From a virus (taxonomy: Duplodnaviria; Caudoviricetes): 64,000 nt of DNA. The translations under genes were made by a program, and so were the position numbers. Below are positions 13,961-61,506 of this stretch, piece by piece. Positions within the stretch are counted from its first letter, which is position 1. Each line of letters begins with the position of its first letter. The notes under the pieces were generated by a model, which saw only the letters and a program-made list of their open reading frames with translations, did not search any database and was not told where the DNA came from. The DNA is taken from the IMG/VR virus record IMGVR_UViG_3300028601_000022, positions 1 to 64,000 of that record; one strand, given 5' to 3'.

Positions 13961-14067
13961 GAAAGTTGAGGAAATAGAAGCCCCTGCGGGTGCCCTGTGT
14001 GGTGTGTACAGCATGCCTAGGAGCATCCGCAGGGGCATTTTTCTAGCAGACGTGTCAATACACACGT
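13961..14067 (+). repeat. Structured dispersed element, copy C
   Basis: TGAGGAAA..GAAGC, long stem with TGTGGTGT loop, T-run, then CGTGTCAATAYACACGT; homologous to 49251 and 61401 copies. Confidence 0.8.
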
Positions 14068-14145
14068 TTTGCTACCAGGTGGCAAATATGCACAAAATCA
14101 CCGGTTTTCGCTTATGTCTGGCCTACACATACAAAGGACGTACAA

Positions 14146-15048
14146 ATGGAAAAAGCTACCGCGTATATGACCCTGTGGGCTCGTTGTAATGTTTCTCCCT
14201 GCGTGTTCTGCGTCTTAGGGGAGACCAGCAAAAAGAAAGAGCCGATAGTAACCAGCATCAAAAAGACCGTGGATGAAATTGAATTGAAGCTTGCTCGATT
14301 GGACTGGGACAAGCACGATAAGGTTTTCTTTACTGGTGGCGAGGCTTTCAACCACGAAGAACCGATGCGCAACATCGAGCCCTTTTGGGAACTCCTAGGG
14401 ATACTGAAGGAGTACGTTACCGGAGGTAAGTTGAAGAAGATTATATTCAGCTCCTCATTCAAGTTCGACTTCCGTGGTTCTATCCTGGAGATGGTGGTAG
14501 GAGAGATACAAACAAAATACCAGGATATGATTCCCTTTATTGAGTTCAACACCTCTTGGGATATTAAATACCGATTCTTCGGTCGCGACCGGGCATACTG
14601 GTTAAGCTGCGTTCGCTGGCTACGAGGCCAGGGGTTTCGTGTGCATGTTAGCACCATCTGTACGCAGGCCTTTATAAAGGGATACGTTGGCAATAGCCTT
14701 GCTGTGGGCATGGTAATGCGGGAGTTCCCTGGAGACCTATTTGACCTTATACCAGTTCGCGGAAAGTATTCAGCCCTGGACAACATGGCGGCTTTCTTTC
14801 CGAAGCGCGACCATTTCAGGGACTTTCTTGAGGTTATATCCGAACGGGATACACCTACCTTCCTGCGTTTTATGGGCCAGCTACAGGGGACCGCTCCTAT
14901 ACTGTATTCGCGTAGCTGCAAGCAGGATGTACTGCGCCTTAAAGCATGTGGCCATCCGCCGGGTCTGAAAAGCTACGCCAACTCTGACAAGTGCATGGTA
15001 TGCGATGCCGAAGAGTTCCTGAAAACATTCAAGGACGGTAATAAATGA
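14146..15048 (+). CDS. Radical SAM-like protein
   Basis: RCNVSPCVFC (CX4CX2C), FTGGE, C-terminal Cys cluster. Confidence 0.7.
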   Translation: MEKATAYMTLWARCNVSPCVFCVLGETSKKKEPIVTSIKKTVDEIELKLARLDWDKHDKVFFTGGEAFNHEEPMRNIEPFWELLGILKEYVTGGKLKKIIFSSSFKFDFRGSILEMVVGEIQTKYQDMIPFIEFNTSWDIKYRFFGRDRAYWLSCVRWLRGQGFRVHVSTICTQAFIKGYVGNSLAVGMVMREFPGDLFDLIPVRGKYSALDNMAAFFPKRDHFRDFLEVISERDTPTFLRFMGQLQGTAPILYSRSCKQDVLRLKACGHPPGLKSYANSDKCMVCDAEEFLKTFKDGNK

Positions 15049-15311
15049 AAATAGCAACGGCTGCCGTTAAGTTGAGCAGCGGTCTTATAGTTTCTCTTCC
15101 TCGACCTGCCCGCCACCACGATATAATAAATGCGCTGGCAAGGGTTAATGTCATTTGCCTTGAGCAGGGATTCCTTACAAATGAAGGCAATTTTGTTACC
15201 AGGTCAGAAGGGTGGCACATAGCACAAGATGCTGGGCAGATAAAGTATGAATGCGGTGGGCCCTGCGGGGAATTGTACAGCGATAACCTCTGGAAGAAAA
15301 CAGGAGACTAG
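15045..15311 (+). CDS. Conserved small phage protein
   Basis: PARHHD, EQGFLT, FVTR.E, LYSDNLW pattern recognised from phage hypotheticals. Confidence 0.75.
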   Translation: MKIATAAVKLSSGLIVSLPRPARHHDIINALARVNVICLEQGFLTNEGNFVTRSEGWHIAQDAGQIKYECGGPCGELYSDNLWKKTGD

Positions 15312-15390
15312 AATGCTCCTTGAAAACCAAAATGAAGTATTTTGTAGAGGATATAGAGCACCCTCTAGCGCACCCGTTCACCGCCCATAG

Positions 15391-15427
15391 AAAAACCCCC
15401 GTAGAGCTTATGCCCTGCGGGGGTTTT
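15391..15427. terminator. Bidirectional terminator at convergent junction
   Basis: AAAAACCCCCG...CGGGGGTTTT. Confidence 0.8.
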
Positions 15428-15461
15428 GTTTTGGCTATTAAATGTGGTTTACACGCAGTGC

Positions 15462-18275
15462 CTACACGAGGCTAAACGTAGCCCCCGTGCTGTTAATGGT
15501 GATGCGGCCCCTCATAAGCTCGCCAACCCTTGCGGGCTGAATAGGAACGTCCACGACCATTTCATTGTTGTCAACGACTTCAGGCGTGTTGTTCGAGGTA
15601 TCGCAGATGACCTTGAAGTCATACAAGCCGCGGCGTGCCTTGATGGAAGCAAGGTACGGCGTAAGCTTCGACACCAGCATGGAGCGGGAGAACTCGTCGT
15701 TAATCTCGAATGTGAAGTCCATCAGGAGGTCCTCGATGGCCGGTTCGATAACGATAAGCAGCATACGCACGTTGACGCGGTCAAGCGCCGATGCACGGTT
15801 AAGCAGCGTCTTCTGGCCCCAGATACGAATACCGAAGGTTTCGTGGAAGTCAATGGGGTTGATGCCTGCATCATACAGAGCATCCTCGTCCCCATCATTG
15901 AACTCCCGGCGAACACCGAGGACATTCAAAACACCACGGCGGTTGCCAGCAGGGGCAAACCACGGTTCATAGTTTGCAGCCGTGTAGCTGATTTGTGCTC
16001 CAACGTGGCCTGTGGGAGACACCCAGATTTCCCGGTCGTTGTGTTCATCGTAAATCTTCACATGGGGCGTATAGAGCGCCGCATGCGAAGTAGACGTGAT
16101 AAGGGACTTCCGCCGGTAAGCAATGAGGTCTTCCAGGTAGTTGGAGCTTACTTCGTGTTCGATGGGAGTGGAGAGGATGCCGAGGGTTGCACCACGGGAT
16201 TCGCATACGTCGATAATGGCCTGCTGGTACGCGGGAATACTCCAGCCAGCATCCATGATGACGGTGATGGGGTACCGACGCTTGTTACCAAACAGTTTGA
16301 GCGCAGTGACGCACTCTCCCGTGGTTGCGGCGTGTCCGATGGAACCACCGGTGAGCTTGGCATACGTGGTCTGGTTGCAGGGGAGGACATTCTTGTTCAC
16401 CGCCTTGTTGTCTTTCCAGCGGGCATAGTTGGAAGACTCAAACACCTTCTCAACGTAGATGTTCTGCCCGTAGCCATCCTTGTGGGTTTCGTCACGGGAG
16501 CAGGTCTTCCGTTCCACTTCCAGGTACTGGTCGCCGTACTTCTTGTACAGAATGACGAGGAAAGCACCGGGTTCCTTGACCATATCCGCGCAGGCCTGGT
16601 CAAAGTCATTCCAATCCGCCTCGTCGCCGTAGGGGTAGTGGAACAGCTTATAGTAGACTTCTTCATCCGTCGGGGTGGACGTATGCAGGTAGCCAACGCG
16701 GCGCTTGTAGCCGGTGTACAGTTCATTGTGGGTATCCAGAATATGATGATACTGGTTCTGCAAAGCATCCAGCGTACCAGCATTGAGGATATCCACAGGA
16801 ATACCAGCTTCGGCGTTACCGGCTGTAGCGGCCAGCTTGATGGTATTCGGCGTACTGGTCTTAATGACATAGTACGTTTGACCAGCAACGAGGCCGCCAG
16901 GAAGAGTACCGTCAGAAGACAGCGTAACCGAATAGCCGGTCTCGGTGATGCCATAGAAGGTTTCCGAAACGGCCAGCGAGTCCTTGGACATATCAATCTT
17001 CGGACTGCATGCAACCTGCTTGTTGGTGCAAGTAAGAGAGAGGTCAACACCAGCGGTTGTCCAATCAATAGGCGCACCGCTTTTCTCAAGCGAAAGAGCA
17101 ATGCGGTTGGCTGTAGGGGACTTGATAACGTAGAAGTCCGTATCAGCCGCCATTGCCGGTTCAGGGGCTGTGGTAGAGGCCAGGCGAACCACATCGTTGT
17201 TTGCAACGGCAGCGTAGAACGGAGCATCGACCGTAAAGAGGTCGGTGTCCACGTCCAGCGTTACGTTGGAAGTAACGGCTTTGCCCTGCAAGGAGATGCC
17301 GAAGGTTACCCCGCCAGTGCTGTTAAGGCCAATGGGCTCTTCGGAGAGGGCGTTGGCTTCAGTACGCGCAAGCTGAACCTTGTACTTGTCGGCATTCACG
17401 CCATCCTGCGGAACGACAATGAGGTAGTACGTTTCCGTCAGTTCAAGAGGAAGGCCGCTATCCACAAGGGGGAGGTCCTGGGCATTACCGGTAAGCGTAA
17501 CGGCATCGCCAGTGGCCGCTGTGATATAGAATGCCTTGGGCACATTCAGGTAGTCGCCTTCAATATCCACTGTGAAGGTGGAGTTGAAGCCGGATGCTTT
17601 GCCGTCGCTGGTGTCAAGTTCGTAACCATCAGGGTCGGCGACTGCATACTGCTGTTCACCGTTCACATCGTCGGGGGTGAGCTTGATGGTGACTCCCGTG
17701 CCAGGAGACGTAAACACAATGTAGGTACCGTTGAGCGCATCAGCCTGCGAAGCCGCTACACGGATACCGTACTTGTCTTCGGAGAACTTGACGACAAAGT
17801 AGTTGGTGCTCTCCGCGAGAGGAGCAGGAAGGGAAGCGCCTTCAAACTGAATCACATCACCGTCAGAGAGAGTTTCATACAGGAACTTGCTCCAGGCAGC
17901 CTCTGCATCCGTTGTGGTGCGGAGAAACAGAGAAGACAGGCCCTGATTAACAGAAACAGGCATGGAGGTGACGGGAATGTCCTGGGCAAGATACGCACCA
18001 CCGTAAGTAGCACCGGTGTCAGGGCGGCTAATCCACAGCTTGTTCGACTTTTCCAGGAAGATGCGGGCTTCAAACAGCCCCAGCGGGTCACGGGGAAGAA
18101 TCTTGTCCGTAGACAGAAAGCGCCGGAAAAGTTCGGCTTCCGATGTAACCAGACGGGGAGTAAGCACGTCGCCTTTGGAGGTGTTAAGAACCATAGCACC
18201 GTAGATACCAGGAAAGCTGGGAGTACGGGAACTGAGGTCAATCTCGATAATTTCAACTCTTGCACGACCGTTCAT
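15462..18275 (-). CDS. Tail sheath protein (T4 gp18-like) with four inserted beta repeats
   Basis: PWFAPAGNRRG, GINPI, WGQKT, RVNVRML, DTSNNTPEVVD. Confidence 0.95.
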   Translation of the reverse strand: MNGRARVEIIEIDLSSRTPSFPGIYGAMVLNTSKGDVLTPRLVTSEAELFRRFLSTDKILPRDPLGLFEARIFLEKSNKLWISRPDTGATYGGAYLAQDIPVTSMPVSVNQGLSSLFLRTTTDAEAAWSKFLYETLSDGDVIQFEGASLPAPLAESTNYFVVKFSEDKYGIRVAASQADALNGTYIVFTSPGTGVTIKLTPDDVNGEQQYAVADPDGYELDTSDGKASGFNSTFTVDIEGDYLNVPKAFYITAATGDAVTLTGNAQDLPLVDSGLPLELTETYYLIVVPQDGVNADKYKVQLARTEANALSEEPIGLNSTGGVTFGISLQGKAVTSNVTLDVDTDLFTVDAPFYAAVANNDVVRLASTTAPEPAMAADTDFYVIKSPTANRIALSLEKSGAPIDWTTAGVDLSLTCTNKQVACSPKIDMSKDSLAVSETFYGITETGYSVTLSSDGTLPGGLVAGQTYYVIKTSTPNTIKLAATAGNAEAGIPVDILNAGTLDALQNQYHHILDTHNELYTGYKRRVGYLHTSTPTDEEVYYKLFHYPYGDEADWNDFDQACADMVKEPGAFLVILYKKYGDQYLEVERKTCSRDETHKDGYGQNIYVEKVFESSNYARWKDNKAVNKNVLPCNQTTYAKLTGGSIGHAATTGECVTALKLFGNKRRYPITVIMDAGWSIPAYQQAIIDVCESRGATLGILSTPIEHEVSSNYLEDLIAYRRKSLITSTSHAALYTPHVKIYDEHNDREIWVSPTGHVGAQISYTAANYEPWFAPAGNRRGVLNVLGVRREFNDGDEDALYDAGINPIDFHETFGIRIWGQKTLLNRASALDRVNVRMLLIVIEPAIEDLLMDFTFEINDEFSRSMLVSKLTPYLASIKARRGLYDFKVICDTSNNTPEVVDNNEMVVDVPIQPARVGELMRGRITINSTGATFSLV

Positions 18276-18343
18276 ACAGATACCTCAAGCACCTATTGTA
18301 CGCATTCTTAACTGCGCACCTCTATGCTTAAAGGGTTATAGTG

Positions 18344-18670
18344 TTAGCGGATGATAGAGCACCAGCCAGCGGAGACCGCGCCCTGCAAGGTCATTCCGTT
18401 GACGGTAACAATGTCGCTTTGTTTGTAGTCCTTGCCAGTGCGGGCAGAGGGAGACAGAACAAAAGAATCACGTTTCAAAACAACGGTAATGGCGTGATTG
18501 CGCCGGTTGACCAATCCGATATTGGTATCCATTGTTCTTGTCGCAGGAGCTGCGCTCACGGTGCTTTCAGGCTTCGCGCCTTGGTTCTTGTTGCCTGAAT
18601 CCTGCTTGTTATCCTGGCCCGTACCAGCTTTGTGGCCCTGATTGATGCCGGGCCCGTTGTCTTTTGCCAT
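18344..18670 (-). CDS. Hypothetical virion-module protein
   Basis: AGGAG RBS. Confidence 0.7.
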   Translation of the reverse strand: MAKDNGPGINQGHKAGTGQDNKQDSGNKNQGAKPESTVSAAPATRTMDTNIGLVNRRNHAITVVLKRDSFVLSPSARTGKDYKQSDIVTVNGMTLQGAVSAGWCSIIR

Positions 18671-18689
18671 AGTATTCTCCTTTACGAGG

Positions 18690-19343
18690 TTACTTCCTCA
18701 TATTAGGTGACTTGTTTCCATCGGAGTCAACGCTAATGATTCCACCATTAAGGGCCTCCCCGTTAAGTTCTTTGCCGTTCACCACGATACAGCGAACCAA
18801 CTTCATCTCGTCGGTGAAGAGGAACTGCGATTGCACGGTGAATGTAGCTTCAAGACTGTAGAGGCGCCCTTCCGAGTCATAGGTGTTTGTATCCCGCCCA
18901 CCGGGTGCTGGTGATAACTCCGAAAACTCCCCCACTGTACTTTCCCAAATTTCAACCACATCCAGGCCCGGAACGGTTACCCTGTATTGCAGCTTCGCAG
19001 CAAACGCAGCCATCTCCACGTACCGGTGTATCTGGTCAAAATGGTCGTTCTCATTGTCTGCAATCATACCAAGAGTAATGGTAGCATTAAACTTGATAGG
19101 CTTTACCCGTAGCGCCTTTGTTTCAGACGTGTTTGTCTTACCAAGAAAGGAGCTTCCGTGTGTAGTAAGCCCATGAGGGAAAGAGATAGAGGTAGAGCCG
19201 TATATCAAACCCGGCGATTTCACCTTCTCTGCACCAAACTTATTCCAGAAGGAATCCGTTCCACCGTATCGTACATTAGACGCATCATAGTGGAAGTTGG
19301 TACAGAGGTAATTGCCGATACCGGTCATTAAGGCTGCATACAT
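18690..19343 (-). CDS. Putative tail terminator / neck protein
   Basis: Position between capsid and sheath genes; size. Confidence 0.5.
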   Translation of the reverse strand: MYAALMTGIGNYLCTNFHYDASNVRYGGTDSFWNKFGAEKVKSPGLIYGSTSISFPHGLTTHGSSFLGKTNTSETKALRVKPIKFNATITLGMIADNENDHFDQIHRYVEMAAFAAKLQYRVTVPGLDVVEIWESTVGEFSELSPAPGGRDTNTYDSEGRLYSLEATFTVQSQFLFTDEMKLVRCIVVNGKELNGEALNGGIISVDSDGNKSPNMRK

Positions 19344-19351
19344 GCGACCAC

Positions 19352-19705
19352 CTAACCGTAGTAGAGTTTGTATCCAACCTTGTCGGCAACAGCAGACTTA
19401 ACCGTTAAGGACCTGAGGTTGGTGGAGTTCATCATAAAGAAGTTAGTCTGGGTGAGGCTGATAGTTTCCCCGGTACCGTTTACCAAATCCACATCGAATG
19501 GGTCACTGCCATCATACACGTCCCCAATAAACAGAACAAAGTTCGTGTTTTCGAGGTTATAAATAGCATCCCCGTTCTCTTCAAGATAGGCATACGGAAG
19601 GGTTTGTACGGCATTCACCTTAATGCCTCGGTAGAACGAGTCCAGTGTTTGCCTTGTTTTGTCAGTGGACAGCGTTACCGAAACATCCATTCCAAGAGTA
19701 GGCAT
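19352..19705 (-). CDS. Hypothetical structural protein
   Basis: AGGAGG RBS, beta-rich. Confidence 0.7.
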   Translation of the reverse strand: MPTLGMDVSVTLSTDKTRQTLDSFYRGIKVNAVQTLPYAYLEENGDAIYNLENTNFVLFIGDVYDGSDPFDVDLVNGTGETISLTQTNFFMMNSTNLRSLTVKSAVADKVGYKLYYG

Positions 19706-19721
19706 ATACGCCTCCTAAACT

Positions 19722-19758
19722 AAAAAGCCTCCCAGTATTAGGGATACCGGGAGGCTTT
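19722..19758 (-). terminator. Rho-independent terminator
   Basis: AAAAAGCCTCCC...GGGAGGCTTT. Confidence 0.75.
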
Positions 19759-19789
19759 AGTAACCGTGTCGTGATTGCTGAGGGCGCCG

Positions 19790-20104
19790 TTACACGAGGG
19801 TGCGGGCAGCCAGGCGGGCGACCGATTCAGGCAGTTTGACATTGGCTTCGAGCGGAGCGAGGTCGTCGCCTTCGTCTTCTTCTGCTTCGCCACCTTCGGT
19901 GTCGTCGTCCAGGTCTTCAAAGTCGGTATCGTCCAGCTCTTCCGCACTCTGGGCAACGCCGTCCATCACTTCATCCAGGTTGCCGTCTTCGGCGGCCTGA
20001 ACGAACAGCTTGCCAGCCGGGCCAGCCTGCCCGTCTTTGGCAAAAGCATACGCTTGCGCAAGCAAGGTCAACGCATTGAGAGCCTGTTCCTTGGTAATAG
20101 CCAT
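19790..20104 (-). CDS. Small acidic head-associated protein
   Basis: GGAGG RBS; follows the capsid gene. Confidence 0.75.
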   Translation of the reverse strand: MAITKEQALNALTLLAQAYAFAKDGQAGPAGKLFVQAAEDGNLDEVMDGVAQSAEELDDTDFEDLDDDTEGGEAEEDEGDDLAPLEANVKLPESVARLAARTLV

Positions 20105-20174
20105 AATATTTTCCTCCCGTATATGGGATATTTGTTAATCTTTCTAGTGCAAGGGCGGTAACCGCCCTATGCAA

Positions 20175-21242
20175 CTAGATGCGCTGGCCTTTGACAACGG
20201 AACGGTTGTTCACAACGGCCATCGAGGTGGGCTGCGTCAGGAACCAGCCTTTCTTGGCTTCGCCGAAAGCAGCGCGGTCAACGGGAGTGGCGCTCAGGGG
20301 GCGGGTCAGGATAACGCCGTGGTTCACAGGAGCACTGACGAGGTAGAACTCGCCGTCTTCAATGACGCGGAACTGCGGCTGACGCATGTAGTCCGAGTAG
20401 ATTTTCACGTTGTACAGGGAGCCGATTTCGCCGGTTTCCAGGATTTCACGCTTGGTGACAGGGTCGAACACTTCCTGGAAGGCGGACGACGTGATAATGT
20501 CCTGCATAAGAGTGGAGGACAGAATGCACGTGGTAACGGGCAGGCCTTCGCGGTCAATGAGGTCGCGCATGTGGGCGAAGAACTGGGGCGTAAACGCAGT
20601 GGTGGTCTGCAGGTTGTGACGGGAAGCAGCGGCAGCGTCGGCGCACTTTTTCCAGTAGCGGTCTTCATGCACCATGATGGCTTCGAGGCCTTCTTCATAC
20701 TTTTCTTCAAGAAGGTCTGTGCGCGAGCGCGACATTTCCTTGTTGTCGATAAGCAGGAAGCTGTTCAGGTCGAACTCGTCCAGCAGCAGGCGCTTTTCGC
20801 GGATTTCGGAAGGAACAACCTGAGAGGCCGAAGACATAAGGTATGCAACGACCTGCTTCACCTTCACGGTAACTTCGGGGAAGTCGCCGTTGCCGAGTTC
20901 GCTGGCGAGCAGCAGCTGACGGCAGAAGCCTTCACGGTCGGTGGTTTCTTCAATCTGGGCGGCAAGAATACCACCGAGGAGCTGCATCTGCTGGCCGGAA
21001 TTGTCGGCCATAGCAGCGGCCAGAACGGCCTTGCGGTTGGCGGATTTTTCCTGGCGAATTTCAGCAGTATTTTTATCCAGCGGAGCTTCGCCGGAAAGAA
21101 TTTGCAGGGCTGCAACAATCTGCTGCATGGCGTCCTGTTTGGACGAAGCATTCAGATTCCCTTGGGCGTCAAACAGGGGAGACGCGGAATGCGCGCCGCT
21201 GGTCACGCCAGAAACGATGCGGGGAGACAAGAGGTCTTTCAT
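20175..21242 (-). CDS. Major capsid protein
   Basis: 355 aa, strong codon bias, ILETGEIGSLYNVKI (HK97-fold G-x-L/I-x-G/N-V-x-I), 3' hairpin at 20148-20173, position in head module. Confidence 0.8.
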   Translation of the reverse strand: MKDLLSPRIVSGVTSGAHSASPLFDAQGNLNASSKQDAMQQIVAALQILSGEAPLDKNTAEIRQEKSANRKAVLAAAMADNSGQQMQLLGGILAAQIEETTDREGFCRQLLLASELGNGDFPEVTVKVKQVVAYLMSSASQVVPSEIREKRLLLDEFDLNSFLLIDNKEMSRSRTDLLEEKYEEGLEAIMVHEDRYWKKCADAAAASRHNLQTTTAFTPQFFAHMRDLIDREGLPVTTCILSSTLMQDIITSSAFQEVFDPVTKREILETGEIGSLYNVKIYSDYMRQPQFRVIEDGEFYLVSAPVNHGVILTRPLSATPVDRAAFGEAKKGWFLTQPTSMAVVNNRSVVKGQRI

Positions 21243-21302
21243 ATGACTGGTACTCCTTACGAGTCTTTTCTTGTTGGCAAAGCGGCTTCAGGCCCTTAGG
21301 GC

Positions 21303-22001
21303 TTAGAAGCGGAGGCCCAGGAAGCCGTTGGTGCCGTTGGGCGTGCCGATGATGGTAGCGGGAATCGCGAGGCCGGTGGCCGGAACTGCCGCAGCCACCG
21401 CAATATTGCCGTCGGCATTGATATGCAGAAGCAGCGTACGGTCGTCGAAGTCGGAGCCCAGGTCGATTTTGTCGGTCCAAACTTCGCCTTCAAGAATGAC
21501 GCCGGTAGAGCCAGTCATGGCCGAAGAAGAAACGGAAGGAATCAAAACGCGGTGCTCATAGAACGCCGTTTCCAGCGTGGGCAGATACTTGTACACGACT
21601 TCGAGGTGAGCGTTGGCGGAACTGTCCACGGTGATAAGGCGCGGATTGGTCGAGTCCGGGGTAAGGTCGGCCGCAGCGATACGGGTGCGCACGCCGTTGA
21701 CTTTCTTCCACACGGAAATCTGGCCGGCAACCGGTTCGTAAGGAAGCAGAATTTTGCTGTCTGCATCCGCAACGATGGTCATGGCCTGGGTGGCGGTCAC
21801 GGGGGTCAAAGTTTCAGAATACGAAAAGCCGGCGAACTTGGCGCCGAGAGCGAGGTCAGCCGCGCCTTCAAAGCCCTTCACGGCCTCTTCGTTTTCAACC
21901 AGAATGGAAACCAAGGGAATGCCTTCTTCTTTGGCCTGGTAGCCCGGGACGAATTTGATTTCCCGGGACTGATGCGCAAGAGTGCGAGACATATTCAACA
22001 T
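21303..22001 (-). CDS. Putative capsid decoration / cement protein
   Basis: AAGGAG RBS before ATG 22001; directly upstream of capsid gene. Confidence 0.6.
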   Translation of the reverse strand: MLNMSRTLAHQSREIKFVPGYQAKEEGIPLVSILVENEEAVKGFEGAADLALGAKFAGFSYSETLTPVTATQAMTIVADADSKILLPYEPVAGQISVWKKVNGVRTRIAAADLTPDSTNPRLITVDSSANAHLEVVYKYLPTLETAFYEHRVLIPSVSSSAMTGSTGVILEGEVWTDKIDLGSDFDDRTLLLHINADGNIAVAAAVPATGLAIPATIIGTPNGTNGFLGLRF

Positions 22002-22070
22002 ACTATTCTCCTTAACCGTATCCGGTGTATGCTGGGTTATAACGGGTAGTGCAACAGCCACGCTTACCCG

Positions 22071-45207: not shown

Positions 45208-45975
45208 ATGGCAAATATCAATTTGGTCAATCTCAATGACGCTGTTTATAGAATGCTCAATCCTGCGTGGCCTTGGAACGGCTTTGAGAGTACGGCCCTT
45301 AGCCCAGCCAACTTCAATGCCGTAAATTGTCCCTTGCTTCATAACCATGACCGAAGGGAAGTAGTAACCTATAAAGACTGGGTATCTATCCTTGCAGGCA
45401 ACCCGAATGTAACCAACACAACCTCAGATGCCGCTAGCCGCTGCCTTGCTCTTTGCGACTCTGCCCAGAGGGCAGGCCTGAAGCCGTGGGCTCGTACTTT
45501 CGGTAAGTTTGCAGGACCCGGCGGGAAGCCTCTTGCTGAGGTAAAACCCCTGGATGAAATGTTCTGGTACTACGATGCTTTGGACAGGCAGCTTCGTTAT
45601 ACCCTTAACAACGTAAACAACCCGTGCCGAGTAATGCACTGGTATCATAACAACGGATGGAAGTGGCGCTGGGCAGAAACTGGCATCACGGTAGAGCCAG
45701 GTGCTCGCGTAACCCTGCAGCCAGGCGTGTATGGTGCCAGTAGCATGGCCTACAGCAATGCTGGTACTGGCTTTAGTATAAATGACTCTACCGGGCCTAC
45801 CCCAGGCAGTTACCTCTTGCAGTATTCTGACCCTAACGGCGGGGTGTGGAGATACATGAACTCCATCTTTTTTGTGGACTCTCCAGTTGACATAGAAATC
45901 ATGTGGTCTGGCAGCGGTTCCCATGTCATGCAAGGCATCGTATTCCGCATTACGCCCCCAGGGTATTGGTGCTAA
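45208..45975 (+). CDS. Adhesin-like paralog 1
   Basis: AGGAG RBS; follows fibre genes; conserved/variable blocks versus paralog 2. Confidence 0.65.
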   Translation: MANINLVNLNDAVYRMLNPAWPWNGFESTALSPANFNAVNCPLLHNHDRREVVTYKDWVSILAGNPNVTNTTSDAASRCLALCDSAQRAGLKPWARTFGKFAGPGGKPLAEVKPLDEMFWYYDALDRQLRYTLNNVNNPCRVMHWYHNNGWKWRWAETGITVEPGARVTLQPGVYGASSMAYSNAGTGFSINDSTGPTPGSYLLQYSDPNGGVWRYMNSIFFVDSPVDIEIMWSGSGSHVMQGIVFRITPPGYWC

Positions 45976-45984: not shown

Positions 45985-46755
45985 ATGGCAAATATCAACT
46001 TGGTCAACTTGAATGATGCAGTCTACAGGATGCTTAATCCGGCTTTTGTTTGGACAAGCGGTGCCAATAATGCAAACCCGATGACCGAAGAGAACTTCAA
46101 CAAGATAAACTGCCCTCTTCTTCACAACCACGACCGCAGGGAAGTGGTGACCTATAAAGACTGGGTATCTATTCTTGCCGGTAACCCTGACGTTACCGAT
46201 ACCCGACCTAACAGGCGTAGCAGGTGTCTTGCATTGAGCGATACACCTGGATACTCTTATCTGAAACCTTGGGCTCGCACGTTCGGTAAGCCCGCCGGCC
46301 CAGGCGGAAAGCCCCTTGCCGAAGTAAAGCCGCTGGATGAAATGTTCTGGTACTACGATGCTTTGGACAGGTATATTGCATCTACCATAACCAATGTAAA
46401 GAACGCTTGCCGCGTCCTGTATTACTATTACCATACAACGAACGGTTGGTCGCCGCAGTGGGCGGAAGATGGGTCGAAAATATCCGATAATAAGACCTCG
46501 CAGCGCCTCGAGCCTGGTGTTTACGGTGCTTGCAGTTCTTCCTATTCCAGAGATACTGGGTTCGATATTTTTGACGAAACTGGGCCGACCCCTGGTGTCT
46601 TTCCGTTCCTTCGAGTAAATAATGGCGGCTCCTGGGGCTTTCAGAACTCCATCTTCTTTGTAGACTCTCCTGTAGAAATTCGGCCCTGGTGGGGCGGTGG
46701 TAGCCATTTTCAGGGTATGGTATTTCGCATTACACCTCCGGGATACTGGTGCTAA
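45985..46755 (+). CDS. Adhesin-like paralog 2
   Basis: AAGGAG RBS; identical N- and C-terminal peptides to paralog 1. Confidence 0.65.
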   Translation: MANINLVNLNDAVYRMLNPAFVWTSGANNANPMTEENFNKINCPLLHNHDRREVVTYKDWVSILAGNPDVTDTRPNRRSRCLALSDTPGYSYLKPWARTFGKPAGPGGKPLAEVKPLDEMFWYYDALDRYIASTITNVKNACRVLYYYYHTTNGWSPQWAEDGSKISDNKTSQRLEPGVYGACSSSYSRDTGFDIFDETGPTPGVFPFLRVNNGGSWGFQNSIFFVDSPVEIRPWWGGGSHFQGMVFRITPPGYWC

Positions 46756-48857: not shown

Positions 48858-49235
48858 GTGAAAGAGTATAGACTCCTAAGGTTTACTCCGAGGAGAACGC
48901 TTACTTACAACAACCGTTGGTGCCGGCACGTTCTCCCAAAGCATACCCTCTTCTTCATACCTGTTGAAGAGGAACAGGTGATGGCTTGGCTGAACTTTCT
49001 TTGCACGAAGCACCACAAGACGGCACTGTACATCCACACTATAGTCCTCAGGGCGCGCACGGTAAGCACCAGGGTTCTTACAGTGTGGAAAGGTGTTCCA
49101 CTGGTAGAAGTAATGATTCGGGACAGGGATTACCACAAACGAATGAAGCACGGAACACAAAGAGTTCTAAAGGGAGCCGTTAAGCCTCCCACTATCGTGC
49201 GCAAGTTTTTGCAAGAAATAAGGCTACATCGGTAA
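48858..49235 (+). CDS. Basic hypothetical protein
   Basis: GGAGG RBS with GTG start. Confidence 0.6.
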   Translation: MKEYRLLRFTPRRTLTYNNRWCRHVLPKHTLFFIPVEEEQVMAWLNFLCTKHHKTALYIHTIVLRARTVSTRVLTVWKGVPLVEVMIRDRDYHKRMKHGTQRVLKGAVKPPTIVRKFLQEIRLHR

Positions 49236-49250: not shown

Positions 49251-49335
49251 GGAAATGTGCGGAAAAGGAAGCTCCTATGATACCCCAGGATACACCACAG
49301 GGTACCCGTAGGAGCTTCTTTTTGGGCAAATTTTC
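49251..49335 (+). repeat. Structured dispersed element, copy A (core inverted)
   Basis: GGAAAAGGAAGCTCCTA...TAGGAGCTTCTTTTTGGGC. Confidence 0.85.
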
Positions 49336-49441
49336 GTAAGACGTATCTTATTATACCCCAAAAATACCTTCATATAAAACAATAGGTTACATGATGCTCT
49401 TCCTGAGCCCTATTTTGCATGTATTTAGGGTAATTAGCCAC

Positions 49442-49476
49442 AAAAAAGCTGCCACAGTCAGAAGACCGGGCAGCTT
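49442..49476 (-). terminator. Terminator of the baseplate operon
   Basis: AAAAAAGCTGCC...GGCAGCTT. Confidence 0.65.
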
Positions 49477-49499: not shown

Positions 49500-49940
49500 T
49501 TACAGGTCCTTGGTAAGCTCAACGAGGGCAGTATCGTAGCCCGGGTAAGGGCGACCGTGCTTGCTGTTGGCCCAGGCGTCGCGCACAAGCTTGGTGCTAT
49601 TCTGGAGAGTCCAACCTTCAGGCATATTGTCATGCCCCATCACCTTATTGAACAGGAGAGCAATAGCAGCCTGCCCGTCTTTGCCTGTAAAGGAAGCGAC
49701 CGGCGTAGTCGGTTTAGCGGGTTTGGCAGCTTCGTGGGGCGTATCCAGGTCTTCAAGACCACCTTCGCTGGGCGTGCTGCCTTCAGCTGGCGCACCGTTC
49801 TGATTGCCTTCAGCAGGCGCATCGTTCTGGGTTTCGTCGGTTTCCGGGTTTTCCATGTTGGCCCATTCGGGCTGGTTTTCATCTAAGCCCGTGTTAGCTT
49901 CAGGCTGGCCCTTGGTGTCAGTCTTACGCGGTTTTGCCAT
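49500..49940 (-). CDS. Hypothetical protein with disordered acidic N-terminus
   Basis: GGAG RBS. Confidence 0.65.
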   Translation of the reverse strand: MAKPRKTDTKGQPEANTGLDENQPEWANMENPETDETQNDAPAEGNQNGAPAEGSTPSEGGLEDLDTPHEAAKPAKPTTPVASFTGKDGQAAIALLFNKVMGHDNMPEGWTLQNSTKLVRDAWANSKHGRPYPGYDTALVELTKDL

Positions 49941-49967
49941 GTCAATCTCCATAGAAGTTTTTGTGCC

Positions 49968-54622: not shown

Positions 54623-57534
54623 TATACCATCTCCTCACCGCGTAAGGTAATCTTGAACTCGGACCGGAAGATGTAATACTCGTTCCAGGCGAGAGGAAGG
54701 ATTCTCTCTTGCGGATTAAAGGACAGCCAGTAAAGCTCGTTATCCCGTACCATCTTGTTCGCTTCCTGGGGCCACGCAGGTTCATTGTAAGCAATGTCTG
54801 TTACCTTGGCAACAAGGCTGCTGAACAGGATGTTTACTGGAGTAGCCATGGAGCCGAGGAAGTATGTGGTACCTGGAAGCCAACTTGCAGGAGTGCTGCT
54901 AACAGAGGAGCGGGAAACCATTGTCCAGGTAATGCTTCCTTCTGTAACAGTTTCCCCTTCGACAGTAGGCCACGAGGGCTCAACATTTCCGCTCACGCCA
55001 CGGTCAGGGAATGCAGTATAACCAGAGGTCTTCCCTTGAAGTGTTCCGGCAACAACCTTAGCGCGATAGAGAAGGTCAGTATATCCAGCCTCGTCAAGTC
55101 CAGCCCAGCCCTTCGTGTAGTCCGTAGCCCTAGCTGACGGTAGGCCGCTGAATCCAGGAGCAGGAGCACGGTTGCTAGGAATTACAACGTCCCCGTCTTT
55201 GCATAGCATGCCTGGCTGCCAGTTCTTGGTCTTGCTGTTCTCCAGACAATATACGCGGGCTACCCGCACATAGTCGAGGTTCTGCTCAAGGACGTTTTCA
55301 AAGTCAATAATGCGCAAGTCCAACGCAAGCACCTTCTGGTACCTGTTAAGTATGGCTTGCACATCAGCCCTCACCTGCGATTCATCAACCTTGCGAAGCA
55401 GGTCAAGATAGATGCCAAGACCAACATGAACAAGAACCGGGTCCTGTATTACGGGAGGCTGCACACCAAAAGGCCTGTAAGCCTCAAGGGTACGCTGTGC
55501 CGTATTCTTTTGATAGACTTCGGAAGTGAGAGTATCGTAGCACTCCCATTCAATTTCGCCGTCAAGGCAGGTGCTGCATATGGTAGTAGGCCAGTCAGGT
55601 TCAACTGCACCGGAGGTGCCAGCATTGCGAGCCTTATAGAAATAGCCTGTTTCAAGAACCGGCTGGACAAGGTCGCCTGCGTTGTATGCGGTATTTGTCT
55701 GGTAGTAGGAGGCAGTATAGCCCTCAAGATATATGGTTTCTGCACACACCCACTCCACCTCGTTATCCACAACCGTAGAGCCTATGAGTGCCGGCCAGTC
55801 AGGTTCAGAATCTACGCGGTCAACGCGGAACATTATACCGGGAAAGGATTCGCTGTCGCTGGGCAGGCAGTAATCTCCTACGTTGTAAACAAATTTTGAA
55901 CGCCATTTGACTGCACCAGCAACGGGGTTAAGTGCAAGGGTACGCCATATGACCTGCCCGTCCTCAGTGAGGGTATTCAGGGACTTTGACCATATAGGTT
56001 CCACATCCAGAGTTTTACCACTCTGGTTACTTGCGACGTAGCCTCCGCGCGTTGCCTTATAGATGAAGCCGTTCTGGTAGCTAGGGAGAATTTCATCACC
56101 CTCGCTAACCATGATGCTAGGGGCCCACGTTTTCTGCGTGTGGTCCTTTACGTAGGTTACGGCAACAACGGCTGGGCTAATGTCGTAGGAGTTTGTATCT
56201 GAAATGTTGGAGATAACCGAGCGCAGGAGTTTCCTGTAGTCCTCACGACCGCGAATAACATGCTGCGTTTCATGGTACAGTGGAGCGGTTTCCTGGATAC
56301 GCGATATTGATTCAGGCTCCTGATACTTGCTCTGTATTGTGATGGCACTTGCAACGCCGCAGTCAAAAGCGAGCTTGTCAGAGTCAAAGGTAATCTCTTC
56401 CGTTTCCACATACAGGAGTTTGAGGATGTCACCGGTATCGTAGTTGTACTTCGATTCGGTATAGGTATCCACGCAGCCCCAGGTAATCTTTCCTTCTGTA
56501 ATGGTAGCACCAATCACGTTAGGCCAGTTGGGCTCGGAATTGCCGCTTACAGCCATTCCCTGGGTTAGGCTCTTAAAGTAACGGGGAGTTTCCTTCTTTC
56601 CCGTGTTCTTCCAGGTATTGTTTCCTGCATCAACGGACTGACCCTGTACTGTAGGCCAAGTAGGCTCAATAGAACCTGAAATGCCGGCTTTTGTGCAAGT
56701 GTAGAAGACCGGAAGATTGCTGCTATCTGACAGGCTTGTGACCACATCGCCTACGTTGTACTGGTGGTTTACACGCCAGGTATAGTTAGGCTTGATGTAG
56801 TCATAGAAGGTATAGCGCGACATGGGAGACCAAGCAGCCGGAGGATAGCGGTTGGTGTAAAGAACGTCAATGCCACCAACGCTGTTGCTGAGGACTGCAA
56901 AACTATCCTTCAGTACATCCAATATAGAACGGCTATATGGAACTTCGCTGCCATTAAGCTGGAGCAGAATATCTTCTGATACCTTGTCAGAGTAGAAACG
57001 GAACCAATGGGTTTTTGCAGAGGGAATGGAGATGGATTCTTCCATCAACTTGCCCACAGAAACAAGCAATTCAGCTTTCTGGCCGTAGGTAAATACCTTG
57101 TCCTCCAGAGAAACCAGGTCGAGAGTAGACATGCTGCCTACAATGTCGAACTTCTTTACAGTTCGGGTAGCGTCCGGGACGAAGGTAATAAGAAGATGAA
57201 GGTTCTGGCCGCGAAATACAGGATAACCAAGAGTAGAGGCAACGGAAAGAGCGGAGCTCCTCTGCTTCGCCTCAAAAAGAAAGGCCTCTCGCCTGGCTGT
57301 GATTGCATTGTAGGCATTGTATTCGGAATGGCCAGCCATAAGCTGCATAATCGTGGTGCCAACCGAACCAGCCCAGAAGTCCTTCCAGCTGCTTTCAGGG
57401 TCTTTGCTGAGGACAAACTCCTGGGCAATCTTGTATATGTTGAGGTATGAGGTCTGCTGCCTGTCAAGAAGGAACAGGGTATCCACAGACCCAGAGGTAG
57501 TTCTCTTGTTAGGATTTGTCGTGCTGATATCCAT
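54622..57534 (-). CDS. Baseplate wedge protein (T4 gp6 / J-like) with seven EPxW CBM-like repeats
   Basis: WKDF..GS.G, RREAFL..A..RSS...A..LGY, PESI..I...AP, EDY. Confidence 0.85.
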   Translation of the reverse strand: MDISTTNPNKRTTSGSVDTLFLLDRQQTSYLNIYKIAQEFVLSKDPESSWKDFWAGSVGTTIMQLMAGHSEYNAYNAITARREAFLFEAKQRSSALSVASTLGYPVFRGQNLHLLITFVPDATRTVKKFDIVGSMSTLDLVSLEDKVFTYGQKAELLVSVGKLMEESISIPSAKTHWFRFYSDKVSEDILLQLNGSEVPYSRSILDVLKDSFAVLSNSVGGIDVLYTNRYPPAAWSPMSRYTFYDYIKPNYTWRVNHQYNVGDVVTSLSDSSNLPVFYTCTKAGISGSIEPTWPTVQGQSVDAGNNTWKNTGKKETPRYFKSLTQGMAVSGNSEPNWPNVIGATITEGKITWGCVDTYTESKYNYDTGDILKLLYVETEEITFDSDKLAFDCGVASAITIQSKYQEPESISRIQETAPLYHETQHVIRGREDYRKLLRSVISNISDTNSYDISPAVVAVTYVKDHTQKTWAPSIMVSEGDEILPSYQNGFIYKATRGGYVASNQSGKTLDVEPIWSKSLNTLTEDGQVIWRTLALNPVAGAVKWRSKFVYNVGDYCLPSDSESFPGIMFRVDRVDSEPDWPALIGSTVVDNEVEWVCAETIYLEGYTASYYQTNTAYNAGDLVQPVLETGYFYKARNAGTSGAVEPDWPTTICSTCLDGEIEWECYDTLTSEVYQKNTAQRTLEAYRPFGVQPPVIQDPVLVHVGLGIYLDLLRKVDESQVRADVQAILNRYQKVLALDLRIIDFENVLEQNLDYVRVARVYCLENSKTKNWQPGMLCKDGDVVIPSNRAPAPGFSGLPSARATDYTKGWAGLDEAGYTDLLYRAKVVAGTLQGKTSGYTAFPDRGVSGNVEPSWPTVEGETVTEGSITWTMVSRSSVSSTPASWLPGTTYFLGSMATPVNILFSSLVAKVTDIAYNEPAWPQEANKMVRDNELYWLSFNPQERILPLAWNEYYIFRSEFKITLRGEEMV

Positions 57535-57545
57535 ATACCCTTTCC

Positions 57546-57962
57546 TTATGAACCCGCCAGGTCCTTAGTGAATTGCTTTTTGTATATACCGGAGATAATC
57601 AACGAAGTATCATCCAGACCAACCAAATCGAACACTAGGTGCATATCATATGCGTTGTCGTCAGGGAGGGGTGTAATAACGGTTTCGGTAAGATTGGTAG
57701 TCACCCTGGGCTCCCAAGCCATAACGGCATTGATAATGCCGAACCGTATTTCATATGCCGTAGTGTCGTCTACCTGCTCGAAAAGGTTGTCAGGAAGATT
57801 TACACCGTAGGTAACCTCGTTTAGACGCTCGCCAACAACTGTGGTGAGAAGGTTGTGCAGAGAATAAAACACTGCATCCCTGTTTGTCGTAAGGGGAGGT
57901 GTGCCCGGTGTGATTTTTGCGGAGTTCACGTCCGTATAGACGCATTTCTCAATAGCTAGCAC
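57546..57962 (-). CDS. Baseplate gp25-like sheath initiator
   Basis: LLTT..GER...YG..L...LFE, WEPRV. Confidence 0.9.
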   Translation of the reverse strand: MLAIEKCVYTDVNSAKITPGTPPLTTNRDAVFYSLHNLLTTVVGERLNEVTYGVNLPDNLFEQVDDTTAYEIRFGIINAVMAWEPRVTTNLTETVITPLPDDNAYDMHLVFDLVGLDDTSLIISGIYKKQFTKDLAGS

Positions 57963-58029
57963 GTTACCCTCCAGTTACGTGGGCCCTGTAGAATAGGGCC
58001 CGTATCTGCATTAAAATTTCTTGTGTTAT

Positions 58030-58311
58030 CTAAGGGGAAAAGACGTTCGGTGAACCCTGGCATACAGAATCACCACAGCTAAGTGGGTGACCTATGCGCT
58101 GAACCGCACTACCATTTGCATACACGTTAGACTCACCTACGTAAGTAGCGCCGTGACAAGGAGGCGGGCAGCAATGAGGAACGCGAGTATCACCGTTACG
58201 AACTACAGGTTTTCCATTAATGAATACGTTAGGGCTCCAGGATGAAGGAACCTCAGGAGGCCAGCAACCATGACCACACGTAAAGTCTCCCTGTCTGTGT
58301 ACGGCCGGCAT
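58030..58311 (-). CDS. PAAR spike-tip protein (gp5.4-like)
   Basis: MPAVHRQGD..GHG..PP, SPNVFING.P..R.GD, H, CG....GSPNV. Confidence 0.92.
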   Translation of the reverse strand: MPAVHRQGDFTCGHGCWPPEVPSSWSPNVFINGKPVVRNGDTRVPHCCPPPCHGATYVGESNVYANGSAVQRIGHPLSCGDSVCQGSPNVFSP

Positions 58312-58320
58312 ATGCACTCC

Positions 58321-58536
58321 TTATTCGAAGCCTGGTGAGCTATGTCGGGCTGACCGAGACCCTCCAAGTTCAATCATGCTTGTGTCATGACGGTGGTGAG
58401 GAACAAAGCCTTGCAGCTTCATCCAGCACTCTTCGCATCTGTAATCTGTAATCATTTTATTGCAACCTGGGGTATGGCATTTACGCAGGTTCCGTTTCGT
58501 TTCTTCCTTTATTCTGCGGACTCTAGGGGTTCCCAT
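58321..58536 (-). CDS. Small Cys-rich hypothetical protein
   Basis: GAGG RBS; CHTPGC...CEEC. Confidence 0.5.
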   Translation of the reverse strand: MGTPRVRRIKEETKRNLRKCHTPGCNKMITDYRCEECWMKLQGFVPHHRHDTSMIELGGSRSARHSSPGFE

Positions 58537-58680
58537 CTTAACGCCTCGATTCCTAAAGGTTTAACTCACCTCTTTGCAGAGTTCCCTAACCGACAATAAC
58601 ACTACTTTTATCGAATAGCAATACAATCAGCGGAGCAGCGTGTCCTGGAAAACCAGAACACGCTGTCCGCAGGTAGCCAC

Positions 58681-59289
58681 CTAAGAGGTGAAGCCGTCAG
58701 CGTAAACCGAGGGGAAGACCAGGTCTGCCGAAATCGCCTCTTCCGTGAAGTAGTCAAAGGCGAAGCTGATAGCAGGCTGCATCGGGTCTGCGGTAGAGCC
58801 GTCGAAGTCACCACGCTGGTAGCCTTCCACATACACACCGATAAGGGTGTATTTGTAGATGGGTTCATCCAGGTTGTTAAGCTGGTAAAGTTCAATGATG
58901 CCTTCAAGGTCGGCCTTGAACTGCGTGATACCAGAACTGTTGCCTGTGGGAACTTCGCGGTTGGTATCCCAATACAGGTTGTGCCAATCATGCAGCATCT
59001 TCTGCACGAAGGTATCGTTGGTTTCCATCAGGGTGCAGCTCCACGGGCTGGTGTATTCAGCAGTACCCGGCTGGCGCACTTTGTTGCCGCGAATCTGTAT
59101 TTCAGCCGAAGTACCGGTCTTTTCAGGCACCGAGGCCGAAAGGGCGCGGATGTTGAAGTCCTGACTGGCATTTGCCCACTGCGACATTTTGTTGGGCCAC
59201 TGGGTTACCTTAATACCCCAGCGAAACATCTGGCTGAAATTACCAAGTTTTCGCAGGTTATTGGTAGAGGGCCGAAGGGAGTTCGCCAT
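58681..59289 (-). CDS. Tail tube protein (T4 gp19-like)
   Basis: SVP, IRG..V..PG..EY..W, ET.D, YQL, F.FDYF. Confidence 0.85.
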   Translation of the reverse strand: MANSLRPSTNNLRKLGNFSQMFRWGIKVTQWPNKMSQWANASQDFNIRALSASVPEKTGTSAEIQIRGNKVRQPGTAEYTSPWSCTLMETNDTFVQKMLHDWHNLYWDTNREVPTGNSSGITQFKADLEGIIELYQLNNLDEPIYKYTLIGVYVEGYQRGDFDGSTADPMQPAISFAFDYFTEEAISADLVFPSVYADGFTS

Positions 59290-59367
59290 AACATCTCCTG
59301 TTCGTTTAATTGTATGATATTGGCATAACCAAGCATTTACAGTACCTGGGTTAAAAGGGGATACTCG

Positions 59368-61311
59368 ATGAACAAAGCTTCAAAAACCGTCTTTGAAAAG
59401 CACGTGGCTTCTGCTTATACAGGATACGATTGGTCTTCCTTAGAACTTGACAAAAGTGGTAAACTATCCCCTCATGGTAAGAAAACCAACCTTAAATGCT
59501 ATGAGTCCTTTTCTGCGCAGTACCCCTCGGTATGCCCTACCTTTGAATATTTCAAGCTCCTGTCCAGGTTCTTCCTGTCATATCACTTAAATACAACCAG
59601 GGTTATAAGCAGCTATGTTTGCCCGGTTTGCCGAAGCGCCCCTAAGAAAGGAATATGCAATAGCGGCAAGAACGGTAAGTACAAAGGTGAAACCTGCGGT
59701 AGCCTAGAGTGCCAGACCGAACTTAGAAAAAGAACTAACATGGAGAAGGGAGGCAATACCTGCGCTCTCCATCGTTCTGATGTAAAGTCTAAGGTAGAAG
59801 CATCCTTTCAGCGGAACTGGGGAGTTAATAACGCAGGTCAGTCCGAAAAGATACGGAACAAGTGGAAACAGACAAACAGGGAAAAGACAGGATATGACTT
59901 CCAGTTTCAGAATCCGTCTATTCGGAAAAAGATAAAGGAAACCTGCATAGAGAAGTACGGAGCTCCTAACGTAATGTGCGCAGAGTCCTCTATGCGGAAA
60001 GAAATAGACAAGAAGCTCAATTCAGAGGCTACCGTTCGGAAAAGACGGGAAACCATGAAAACCCGCGGTGTAATAGGATGTAAATCCTCTTCAGAAGATA
60101 ACCTATACCGGACGTTACTAGAATACTTCCCTGAGGTAGAGCGCCAGTACGGGGACGACAGGTACAACTTTAAATGCGACTTCTATGTACCTATAAATGA
60201 CCTGTTTATTGAATACCAAGGATACTTTTGCCATGGTGGTAGGCCGTATAATACAAAAGACCCAGTTTGCCGGTCTTTGGTGAAGAAATGGGAGCATAGG
60301 GCGTCTTTAAAGTATAAGAAAGGAAAACACGCGCCCTTTTACTCAAACGCCATCAAAATCTATACAGAATTGGATGTGCGGAAAAGAAACACCGCAAGAA
60401 ACAATTCCTTAAATTGGAAGGAATTTTTCTCTGAACCAGAAGTTCTTGCTTGGCTAAGTAGCCTGTACCCTAACACCTACTATGACAAACTAAAGGTTAT
60501 ATTCAAGGTCTCCGCACTAAGACGGGAATATGAACTAATACACGCCTCAATACCAGGCTATGATAAGGTTCCAAGGCATAATAAGCTAGTCTTACAGTTT
60601 CAAAGTAGGTTATTCTTTAAGCAGGAACTGAAAATGTGGAAAGACCAGAGAGTAAGGGAGAAGCTTGTAGCCAACAGGCTTAAGTACATAGGGAAAGGCT
60701 GGGGAGAGCTGACGGCATGGGAGATTTTAAGGGGATTCAAAATAAGCGGCATGGTGAAAGCACCATTTTCCCACTTTAGCCAGCACTGGATGAGAAAATT
60801 TATAGAGGACTACAAGGTTACCAGCATATATGACCCGTGCGGTGGGTGGGGGCACCGGCTTACTGCGTGCACGAGGGAATTCCCGTATATCTATAATGAT
60901 ATAAGAAGTAAGGTTACCGCGAACTGCAAAGAGCTAGCCGAGTTTCTAGGGATGGAAAATAAAGTCTTCTATAACGAGGACGCAGCCAGCCTATCCCCTA
61001 AGGAAAACTATGATGCAGTCTTTACCTGCCCGCCTTATTGGAACACGGAAGTATATTCTACGAAGGGGGCCGAAAACCTGCCCAGGGAGGGGTTCTTTAA
61101 ATGGTGGGGTAAGGTAATAAAAGCTGCATGCAAAAAGAAGCCCAGGTTGTTTGCTTTCGTTATTTCAGGGTATTTAAAGAAAGAAATGGTTGAGGTATGC
61201 AAAAACAAAGGTCTTAATTTTGAAGCCTCTTATGAGTTAGGGAGAAGTAAAAGCCACTTCAATAAGGGGCCTATTAGCTCAAAAGAGTACCTAGTGATAT
61301 TTACAACATAG
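59368..61311 (+). CDS. Endonuclease-methyltransferase fusion (Zn finger, KYG-type repeats, PD-(D/E)XK Vsr-like nuclease, amino-MTase)
   Basis: CPVC..TCGSLEC; EKYGAPN; SSSE..LY...ERQY...CDFY...FIEYQG.F.H; IYDPCGGWG; FTCPPYW. Confidence 0.8.
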   Translation: MNKASKTVFEKHVASAYTGYDWSSLELDKSGKLSPHGKKTNLKCYESFSAQYPSVCPTFEYFKLLSRFFLSYHLNTTRVISSYVCPVCRSAPKKGICNSGKNGKYKGETCGSLECQTELRKRTNMEKGGNTCALHRSDVKSKVEASFQRNWGVNNAGQSEKIRNKWKQTNREKTGYDFQFQNPSIRKKIKETCIEKYGAPNVMCAESSMRKEIDKKLNSEATVRKRRETMKTRGVIGCKSSSEDNLYRTLLEYFPEVERQYGDDRYNFKCDFYVPINDLFIEYQGYFCHGGRPYNTKDPVCRSLVKKWEHRASLKYKKGKHAPFYSNAIKIYTELDVRKRNTARNNSLNWKEFFSEPEVLAWLSSLYPNTYYDKLKVIFKVSALRREYELIHASIPGYDKVPRHNKLVLQFQSRLFFKQELKMWKDQRVREKLVANRLKYIGKGWGELTAWEILRGFKISGMVKAPFSHFSQHWMRKFIEDYKVTSIYDPCGGWGHRLTACTREFPYIYNDIRSKVTANCKELAEFLGMENKVFYNEDAASLSPKENYDAVFTCPPYWNTEVYSTKGAENLPREGFFKWWGKVIKAACKKKPRLFAFVISGYLKKEMVEVCKNKGLNFEASYELGRSKSHFNKGPISSKEYLVIFTT

Positions 61312-61400
61312 GAGAAAAGAATGCACCAGGGCACAAGATACTTAACGGCGGAAGCCTAAGACGGTTGCAATCACCGGCTCTACCAAGTTCAGGACGCTAG

Positions 61401-61506
61401 ACGTGTATATTGACACGCATTGCTGAAAATAGCCCAAAAAGAGGCTCCTATGATACCCCAGGATACACCACAGGGTACTCATAGGAGCTTCCTTTTCCTC
61501 ATTTCC
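61401..61506 (-). repeat. Structured dispersed element, copy B
   Basis: Reverse complement aligns end to end with copy C and with the flanks of copy A. Confidence 0.85.

Follow-up and report, generated by a model that had tools for sequence, protein, structure and literature searches.

The 64,000-nucleotide stretch of viral DNA analysed here, referred to as the window, comprises the first 64 kb of the 142,806-bp IMG/VR virus contig IMGVR_UViG_3300028601_000022 and contains three copies of a structured intergenic element of roughly 100 bp (C, A and B in order of position). Sequence comparison suggests that these copies belong to a clade-specific family of paralogous, partly bidirectional intrinsic (Rho-independent) terminators that evolve in concert, a reading to which we assign a probability of about 0.6. 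A preliminary description of the window had located the three copies correctly and had proposed an undescribed cis-element. A repeated, structure-constrained cis-element whose copies recombine is indeed present, although it is not a new kind of element, and the repeat has six members in the contig instead of three.

The six loci were identified with a covariance model trained on five copies, with copy C left out (R1). They all lie on the sense strand, and a broader model (R2) returned the same six. Copy C, although outside the training set, was recovered by R1 at an E-value of 5e-6 and scored 44 bits with R2. On the plus strand, the whole module of copy C extends from 13961 to 14069, with a leader (13961-13979), a main hairpin (13980-14036), a U-tract (14038-14042) and a second hairpin (hairpin 2, 14050-14067) followed by TTTT. 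Copy A, also on the plus strand, covers 49251-49360 (R1 match 49252-49360) and comprises an extended hairpin (49251-49335) with a GC-rich hairpin (49271-49315) and a U-tract (49316-49323), followed by a degenerate hairpin 2 at about 49336-49357. Copy B is encoded on the minus strand at 61399-61506, where the corresponding elements are found at 61506-61425 (extended hairpin), 61488-61444 (GC-rich hairpin), 61443-61436 (U-tract) and 61417-61402 (hairpin 2). Beyond the window, R1 placed copy D at about 80113-80221 of the contig on the minus strand, and copies E and F at about 101384-101492 and 124427-124535, respectively, on the plus strand.

The preliminary description had regarded a match to a known Rfam family, or a lack of further copies and of covariation in relatives, as speaking against its proposal. 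No Rfam covariance model matched the element, neither over the whole window at the gathering threshold nor at E ≤ 1 for five element loci (copy A was covered at the gathering threshold only), the covariance-model scan yielded further copies, and covariation was seen in an alignment that includes relatives. The window contains two exact occurrences of a 17-nt tail motif, for which 0.18 would be expected. Pattern scans of the viral_contigs collection with the tail motif, the loop motif and a 14-mer gave chance matches only, as verified by reading and by nhmmer, and a 26-nt degenerate pattern covering the 3' arm and the trailer matched nothing in viral_contigs or metagenome_contigs.

When each copy was folded, the purine leader was found to base-pair with the T-rich trailer, so that a single extended hairpin results, about 80 nt long and with about 30 bp. 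Energies of the extended hairpin range from -41 to -58 kcal/mol (z -4.6 to -8.7) among the copies, with -57.9 kcal/mol (z -6.8) for the RNA fold of copy C, -40.9 kcal/mol (z -5.3) for copy A and -46.9 kcal/mol (z -5.6) for copy B. Thus, the leader is not a separate module, as had been assumed, but the 5' half of the extended hairpin and the complement of the U-tract region. The hairpin is built in layers, namely a lower A/U helix, an internal loop in which G-G invariantly faces G-G, an 18-bp stem around GC-N-CCTA, and a bulge with a short apical helix. A T-run stands directly 3' of the GC stem and takes the form C/T-TTTTT in five of the six copies, so that the stable GC-rich hairpin with an immediate U-tract expected of an intrinsic terminator is found. 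The opposite strand folds equally well and then enters a T/C-rich run. Since the A-tract before the hairpin mirrors the U-tract behind it, each strand carries a hairpin followed by a T-run, as in bidirectional terminators.

Hairpin 2 follows about 8-10 nt past the T-run and has 4-8 bp of alternating purine/pyrimidine sequence. It had been reported for copies C and B only; it is present there, and copy A carries one as well, in degenerate form. A T-run of its own follows hairpin 2 at C, D and F and at their orthologs, and also at E, and is absent from A, B and their orthologs; with respect to the type of gene junction this is a trend and not a statistic, as orthologs are not independent.

The genomic position of the copies likewise agrees with termination. 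All six lie in sense orientation downstream of the end of a gene on the same strand, at a distance of 10-30 nt from the stop codon in five of them and of 140 nt in copy C. Three of the six (A, B and E) occupy convergent junctions, while the next gene is on the same strand at C, D and F. A GC-rich hairpin between an A-tract and a U-tract, located past stop codons or between convergent genes, is also the arrangement of known bidirectional intrinsic terminators. Compared with ordinary bidirectional terminators, the element differs in its duplex of about 30 bp with internal loops, in the attached second hairpin and in the existence of six related, homogenised copies.

To follow the element beyond this phage, relatives were located via homologs of the portal protein, TopoIB, PolA and a 463-amino-acid protein encoded beside copy E. 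Their contigs (labels L195-L216) were drawn from ENA, Logan and NCBI metagenomes. The element is present at the orthologous place at each of the five sites examined (A, B, D, E and F), and among the relatives that carry it, identity to this phage falls from about 86% at the nucleotide level to 67-70% at the protein level. Orthologs were found for B in L195, L197, L202 and L204, for D in L199, for A in L205, for E in L216, and for F in L211 and L213, with a weak one in L215. The relatives L207 and L208, with 54% TopoIB identity, gave no covariance-model match. Four of the relatives' contigs stop inside the element or just past it, as expected because a dispersed repeat breaks assemblies.

The orthologs keep the outer stem and the trailer, and their apical helix still pairs with an entirely different sequence. 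In an alignment of ten copies and orthologs, 83% of the cells are paired, as compared to 43-55% when the partners are slid by one to three columns. Twelve pairs are changed on both sides, and the observed values were reached by 0-1 of 500 shuffles. A single stem position can be T-A, G-C, C-G or A-T in different copies, and copies C and B differ on both arms at at least four pairs. The stem covariation noticed at first sight is therefore borne out. In Bacillus cereus, the stems of terminators have been described to evolve by compensatory changes (PMC5381666). Because such changes are documented for ordinary terminators, the covariation is no argument against termination.

The copies of one genome are, furthermore, mosaics. 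Their 5' flanks track orthology: that of B is 90% identical to its ortholog in L202, and that of F is 86% identical to its ortholog in L211. Cores and 3' flanks instead track paralogy. The 3' flank of F is 95% identical to that of E and 92% to that of B, as compared to 69% to its own ortholog, from a phage with 96% PolA identity. The B site of L202, whose portal protein is 95% identical, carries the E-type core of the phage studied here at 96% identity and in flipped orientation, compared with 77% identity to the B copy of this phage. Within the contig, the core of A runs in the opposite direction to those of B, C, E and F and equals the core of B at 93% when flipped; on the plus strand it is thus a direct repeat of the B core, while the flanks of A match B on the minus strand. 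The architecture with a shared loop motif that had been ascribed to all three copies accordingly applies to B and C, whereas A, read on the plus strand, carries the loop motif on the other strand. The same kind of inversion, at 93% identity, separates F from its ortholog in L211. In B, an A-C mismatch is located where an F-type 3' arm meets B's own 5' arm, as though a conversion tract had stopped there.

Assembly artefacts are an improbable source of the flips, since a sequencing read spans more than the 45 nt of the hairpin. Two routes could produce them, namely recombination between the stem arms and conversion by a copy of opposite orientation, and the data do not discriminate between these. 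A 40-kb inversion between B and E was also considered as the origin of the E-type core found in L202 at its B site, and was set aside; the E ortholog in L216 has the same local gene order. The L202 contig ends within the element, and conversion and inversion are not distinguishable in that lineage.

Orthologs do not retain the loop word CCCTGTGGTGT. As the loop also tolerates inversion, its similarity within the genome probably reflects gene conversion and not function. An apical sequence that is neither conserved nor fixed in orientation is as expected for terminators, in which only structure would matter, and the likeness of leader, loop and trailer within one genome can be explained by palindromy together with gene conversion. 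The preliminary argument that a plain terminator could not account for the conserved leader and loop thus does not hold: the leader pairs as in bidirectional terminators, and the loop is conserved only among paralogs.

Taken together, we infer the following scheme. In the transcript of each copy, a long hairpin with a GC core would form directly ahead of a U-tract and thereby end the upstream transcription unit. Owing to the A-rich tract before the hairpin, a transcript of the opposite strand would fold alike and run into a T-rich sequence, so that convergent transcription would be stopped as well. Hairpin 2 may serve as a back-up terminator, or as an insulator ahead of the next promoter, with its own T-run where the next gene is co-directional. 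Shared ancestry and continuing gene conversion would keep the copies alike, and the quasi-palindromic core would change orientation through recombination inside the stem or through conversion by a copy that points the other way.

Several observations weigh against this scheme. A duplex of about 30 bp is far longer than the usual stem of a terminator. Some additional constraint is suggested by lower-helix pairing past the first U-tract, by the invariance of the G-G/G-G loop and by the conservation of the core of the tail motif. Hairpin 2 with its conserved GTGTCAATA core is a real additional feature, which a plain terminator leaves unexplained, as the preliminary description had rightly pointed out, although it is weak (-1 to -6.6 kcal/mol) and missing from one ortholog. 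The U-tract is poor in copy D and in the D ortholog. Moreover, the other terminators of this genome are ordinary simple hairpins unrelated to the family, and the scheme does not explain why just these six terminators form one.

The element could instead be a site of RNA processing or stabilisation, at which RNase III would cut the interrupted duplex of about 30 bp, or the duplex would block 3' exonucleases, thereby setting the ends and half-lives of mRNAs, as known from REP stabilisers and from the RNase III sites of T7. The latter are related intergenic long hairpins with internal loops and lack a U-tract terminator. The present element resembles them as a phage family of such hairpins and differs from them by its U-tract. 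An interrupted duplex of at least 20 bp fits RNase III, and the conserved internal loops, the lower helix that pairs past the first U-tract and the intergenic placement past gene ends are all compatible with this explanation. The U-tract directly after the GC stem, however, indicates termination, and there is no sequence-level match to an Rfam family. We regard this alternative, which may coexist with termination, as unlikely, though it survives best among those considered.

The same unexplained features could also belong to an exchangeable, flip-prone palindrome system, in which a phage factor reads hairpin 2 and the G-G/G-G loop and either times read-through or promotes recombination that reshuffles accessory genes. 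We consider such a system rather unlikely.

Quite improbable in our view is a recombination module of the kind described for T4-like phages, for whose PeSLs a consensus sigma-70 early promoter and ORFan cassettes flanked on both sides are diagnostic (PMC2839356, PMC4122927). PeSLs are the nearest described analogue in the sense of recombining repeats that contain a terminator: they, too, are intergenic repeats of about 100 bp in a large myovirus, with a terminator stem-loop and mutual recombination. In this explanation the repeats would provide portable homology for the swapping of accessory gene cassettes, and the demonstrated exchange of sequence between copies, the relatives' contigs that end at the element and the variable gene content beside A and B speak for it. 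Beside copy B, this phage carries a single gene for 647 amino acids in a slot, between the copy and a tail-tube-like gene, whose content differs in every relative examined, from one gene for 124 amino acids in L195 to nine small genes in L197; at the site of copy A, L205 has a PARP-domain gene and different small genes. The module here is, however, devoid of a sigma-70 promoter in or at its copies, while perfect promoters occur elsewhere (2145-3196), and no variable cassette is bounded by two copies, the variable genes at A and B being bordered by a copy on just one side. In the relatives examined, the genes around E and F follow an unchanged order, and the sole difference at D is a simple internal deletion in the upstream gene. 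Variable gene content next to the copies, for which the preliminary description had proposed a test, was seen at A and B and not at D, E and F. Only six copies exist in the contig, and variable genes tend toward the ends of operons in any case. A role of the element as a recombination hot spot is possible.

Separately from the hairpin family, the window contains four copies of a 49-nt early-promoter module at 2142-3213, each with a perfect TTGACA-17-TATAAT promoter and a TG extension, in which a stem-loop encloses the -10 box. Two further promoters of this type are located at about 133.55 and 138.95 kb of the contig. This promoter module is the true PeSL-like family of the phage. At site F and at its close ortholog in L211 (PolA 96% identical), a TATAAT-like box, probably the -10 box of the polymerase gene, lies about 20 nt past hairpin 2 and ahead of that gene; the hairpin module is thus located upstream of this promoter instead of harbouring it.

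Very unlikely, in turn, is a conditional terminator, in which the U-rich stretch and hairpin 2 form a nut-type or other regulatory site that binds a protein or another factor and allows timed read-through. Hairpin 2 and the core of the tail motif do persist at most co-directional sites and most orthologs, and the U-rich stretch presumably resembles boxA, if loosely. The site lies past the terminator, however, and is not promoter-proximal. In relatives, hairpin 2 is degenerate at A and B, the boxA-type likeness involves low-complexity sequence, and no gene for an antiterminator was identified. Other identities of the tail motif were also tried. A sigma-70 promoter on either strand, an extended -10 element (TGnCAATAT) and an IHF site were rejected owing to inconsistent spacings of the partner hexamer between copies and to a lack of enrichment elsewhere in the genome. 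The TopoIB target CCCTT was discarded as well, as it occurs in the loop of one ortholog only.

A mobile unit of the REP or MITE kind, or a cruciform that acts at the DNA level as a replication or packaging signal, is highly improbable despite the dispersed imperfect palindrome with its flipping core, since all five sites examined are occupied in relatives, without an empty site or a presence/absence polymorphism, no target duplications were seen among only six copies, no Y1/RAYT transposase (PF01797) was found in the contig, which is about 52% complete, while control genomes matched, and the orientation of all six copies follows gene direction, which indicates reading at the RNA level. The suggestion of a REP-like mobile unit is thus not upheld. 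REP/BIME sequences of enterobacteria are similarly extragenic imperfect palindromes 3' of genes, in either orientation and with reported roles as terminators or mRNA stabilisers; they measure, however, 35-40 nt, occur in hundreds of copies and are associated with RAYT transposases, as compared to six 80-nt copies at evolutionarily stable sites here.

Stems with a conserved sequence at many sites per genome are further known from the uptake-sequence terminators of Neisseria and Haemophilus, in which the conserved terminator word is selected for DNA uptake (PMC1852404). The shared sequence of the present family, by contrast, is not the same in related phages and appears to be a side effect of gene conversion. 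If the copies are indeed paralogous terminators, they would provide a clean, sequence-only case of phage terminators that behave as a small multigene family, with sites that are stable over long divergence, a structure kept by compensatory change, and a sequence that is repeatedly overwritten and inverted between copies. The case also advises caution, as conserved loops and flanks within one genome need not mean functional constraint. In practical terms, the family would mark the ends of transcription units in a clade of uncultured jumbo phages and accounts for assembly breaks there.

Regarding the individual copies, C is preceded by a gene for 178 amino acids (13284-13820, +), whose stop codon lies 140 nt before the element, and is followed by a radical-SAM-like gene (14146-15048, +) that begins 79 nt past hairpin 2 and whose PF04055 match is below the cut-off. 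This latter gene and the gene before copy D (contig 80426-81331) are distant paralogs with 24% identity from a divergent radical-SAM-like family. Another gene upstream of D encodes 148 amino acids in L199 (2363-2809) and has lost about 240 nt internally in this phage (contig 80222-80425), where it is probably a pseudogene. The stop codon of a gene for 125 amino acids (48858-49235, +) lies 16 nt before copy A, and a homolog precedes the A ortholog in L205. Next to copy A there is, as originally noted, a separate and unrelated intrinsic terminator (49433-49470, -), which serves the convergent gene 49500-49952 and is conserved in L205. A gene for a PARP-domain (ADP-ribosyltransferase-like) protein directly follows TopoIB in L205 (7541-8362) and L206 (2761-3543), and the window contains none. 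Upstream of copy B, a gene for 198 amino acids (61536-62132, -), itself downstream of the portal gene, ends 30 nt before the element; the order of portal gene, gene for 188-203 amino acids and element is common to L195, L197, L202 and L204. Convergent on copy B is the gene for 647 amino acids (59368-61311, +), which is homing-endonuclease-like and methyltransferase-like (phrog_3339, phrog_498). Near copy E, a sub-threshold Rfam match to CcsR1 (26.6 bits against a cut-off of 65.3) at contig 102340-102427 on the minus strand (L183 2340-2427) lies inside the open reading frame for 463 amino acids and is probably due to chance.

The contig, the completeness of which was estimated with CheckV, derives from an uncultured jumbo phage. 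Its portal protein is only 31-34% identical to those of cultured jumbo myoviruses such as PaBG, Dickeya JA11 and Erwinia Y3 (all about 255-261 kb). A megablast search with 7 kb against cultured phages gave no match, and a single-protein search for portal relatives in viral_contigs found none. Helicase, TopoIB, portal and baseplate proteins are encoded in the window, and PolA in the contig beyond it. The four perfect sigma-70 promoters, together with strong Shine-Dalgarno sites before several genes, indicate a host RNA polymerase of the canonical type. Several relatives carry intein or LAGLIDADG domains (PF14890, PF14528) in their portal and polymerase genes (among the homologs P0011, P0021, P0022, P0065 and P0087-P0093), which are absent from the copies of these genes in this phage. 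Finally, the window contains coding repeats at 3583-3877 and 4448-4819, namely Lys-rich units and a long Asp/Glu-rich tract that repeats with periods of 9-12 nt, and a tandem pair of paralogous genes at 45208-45975 and 45985-46755, which encode 255 and 256 amino acids, respectively, and share about 77% nucleotide identity.

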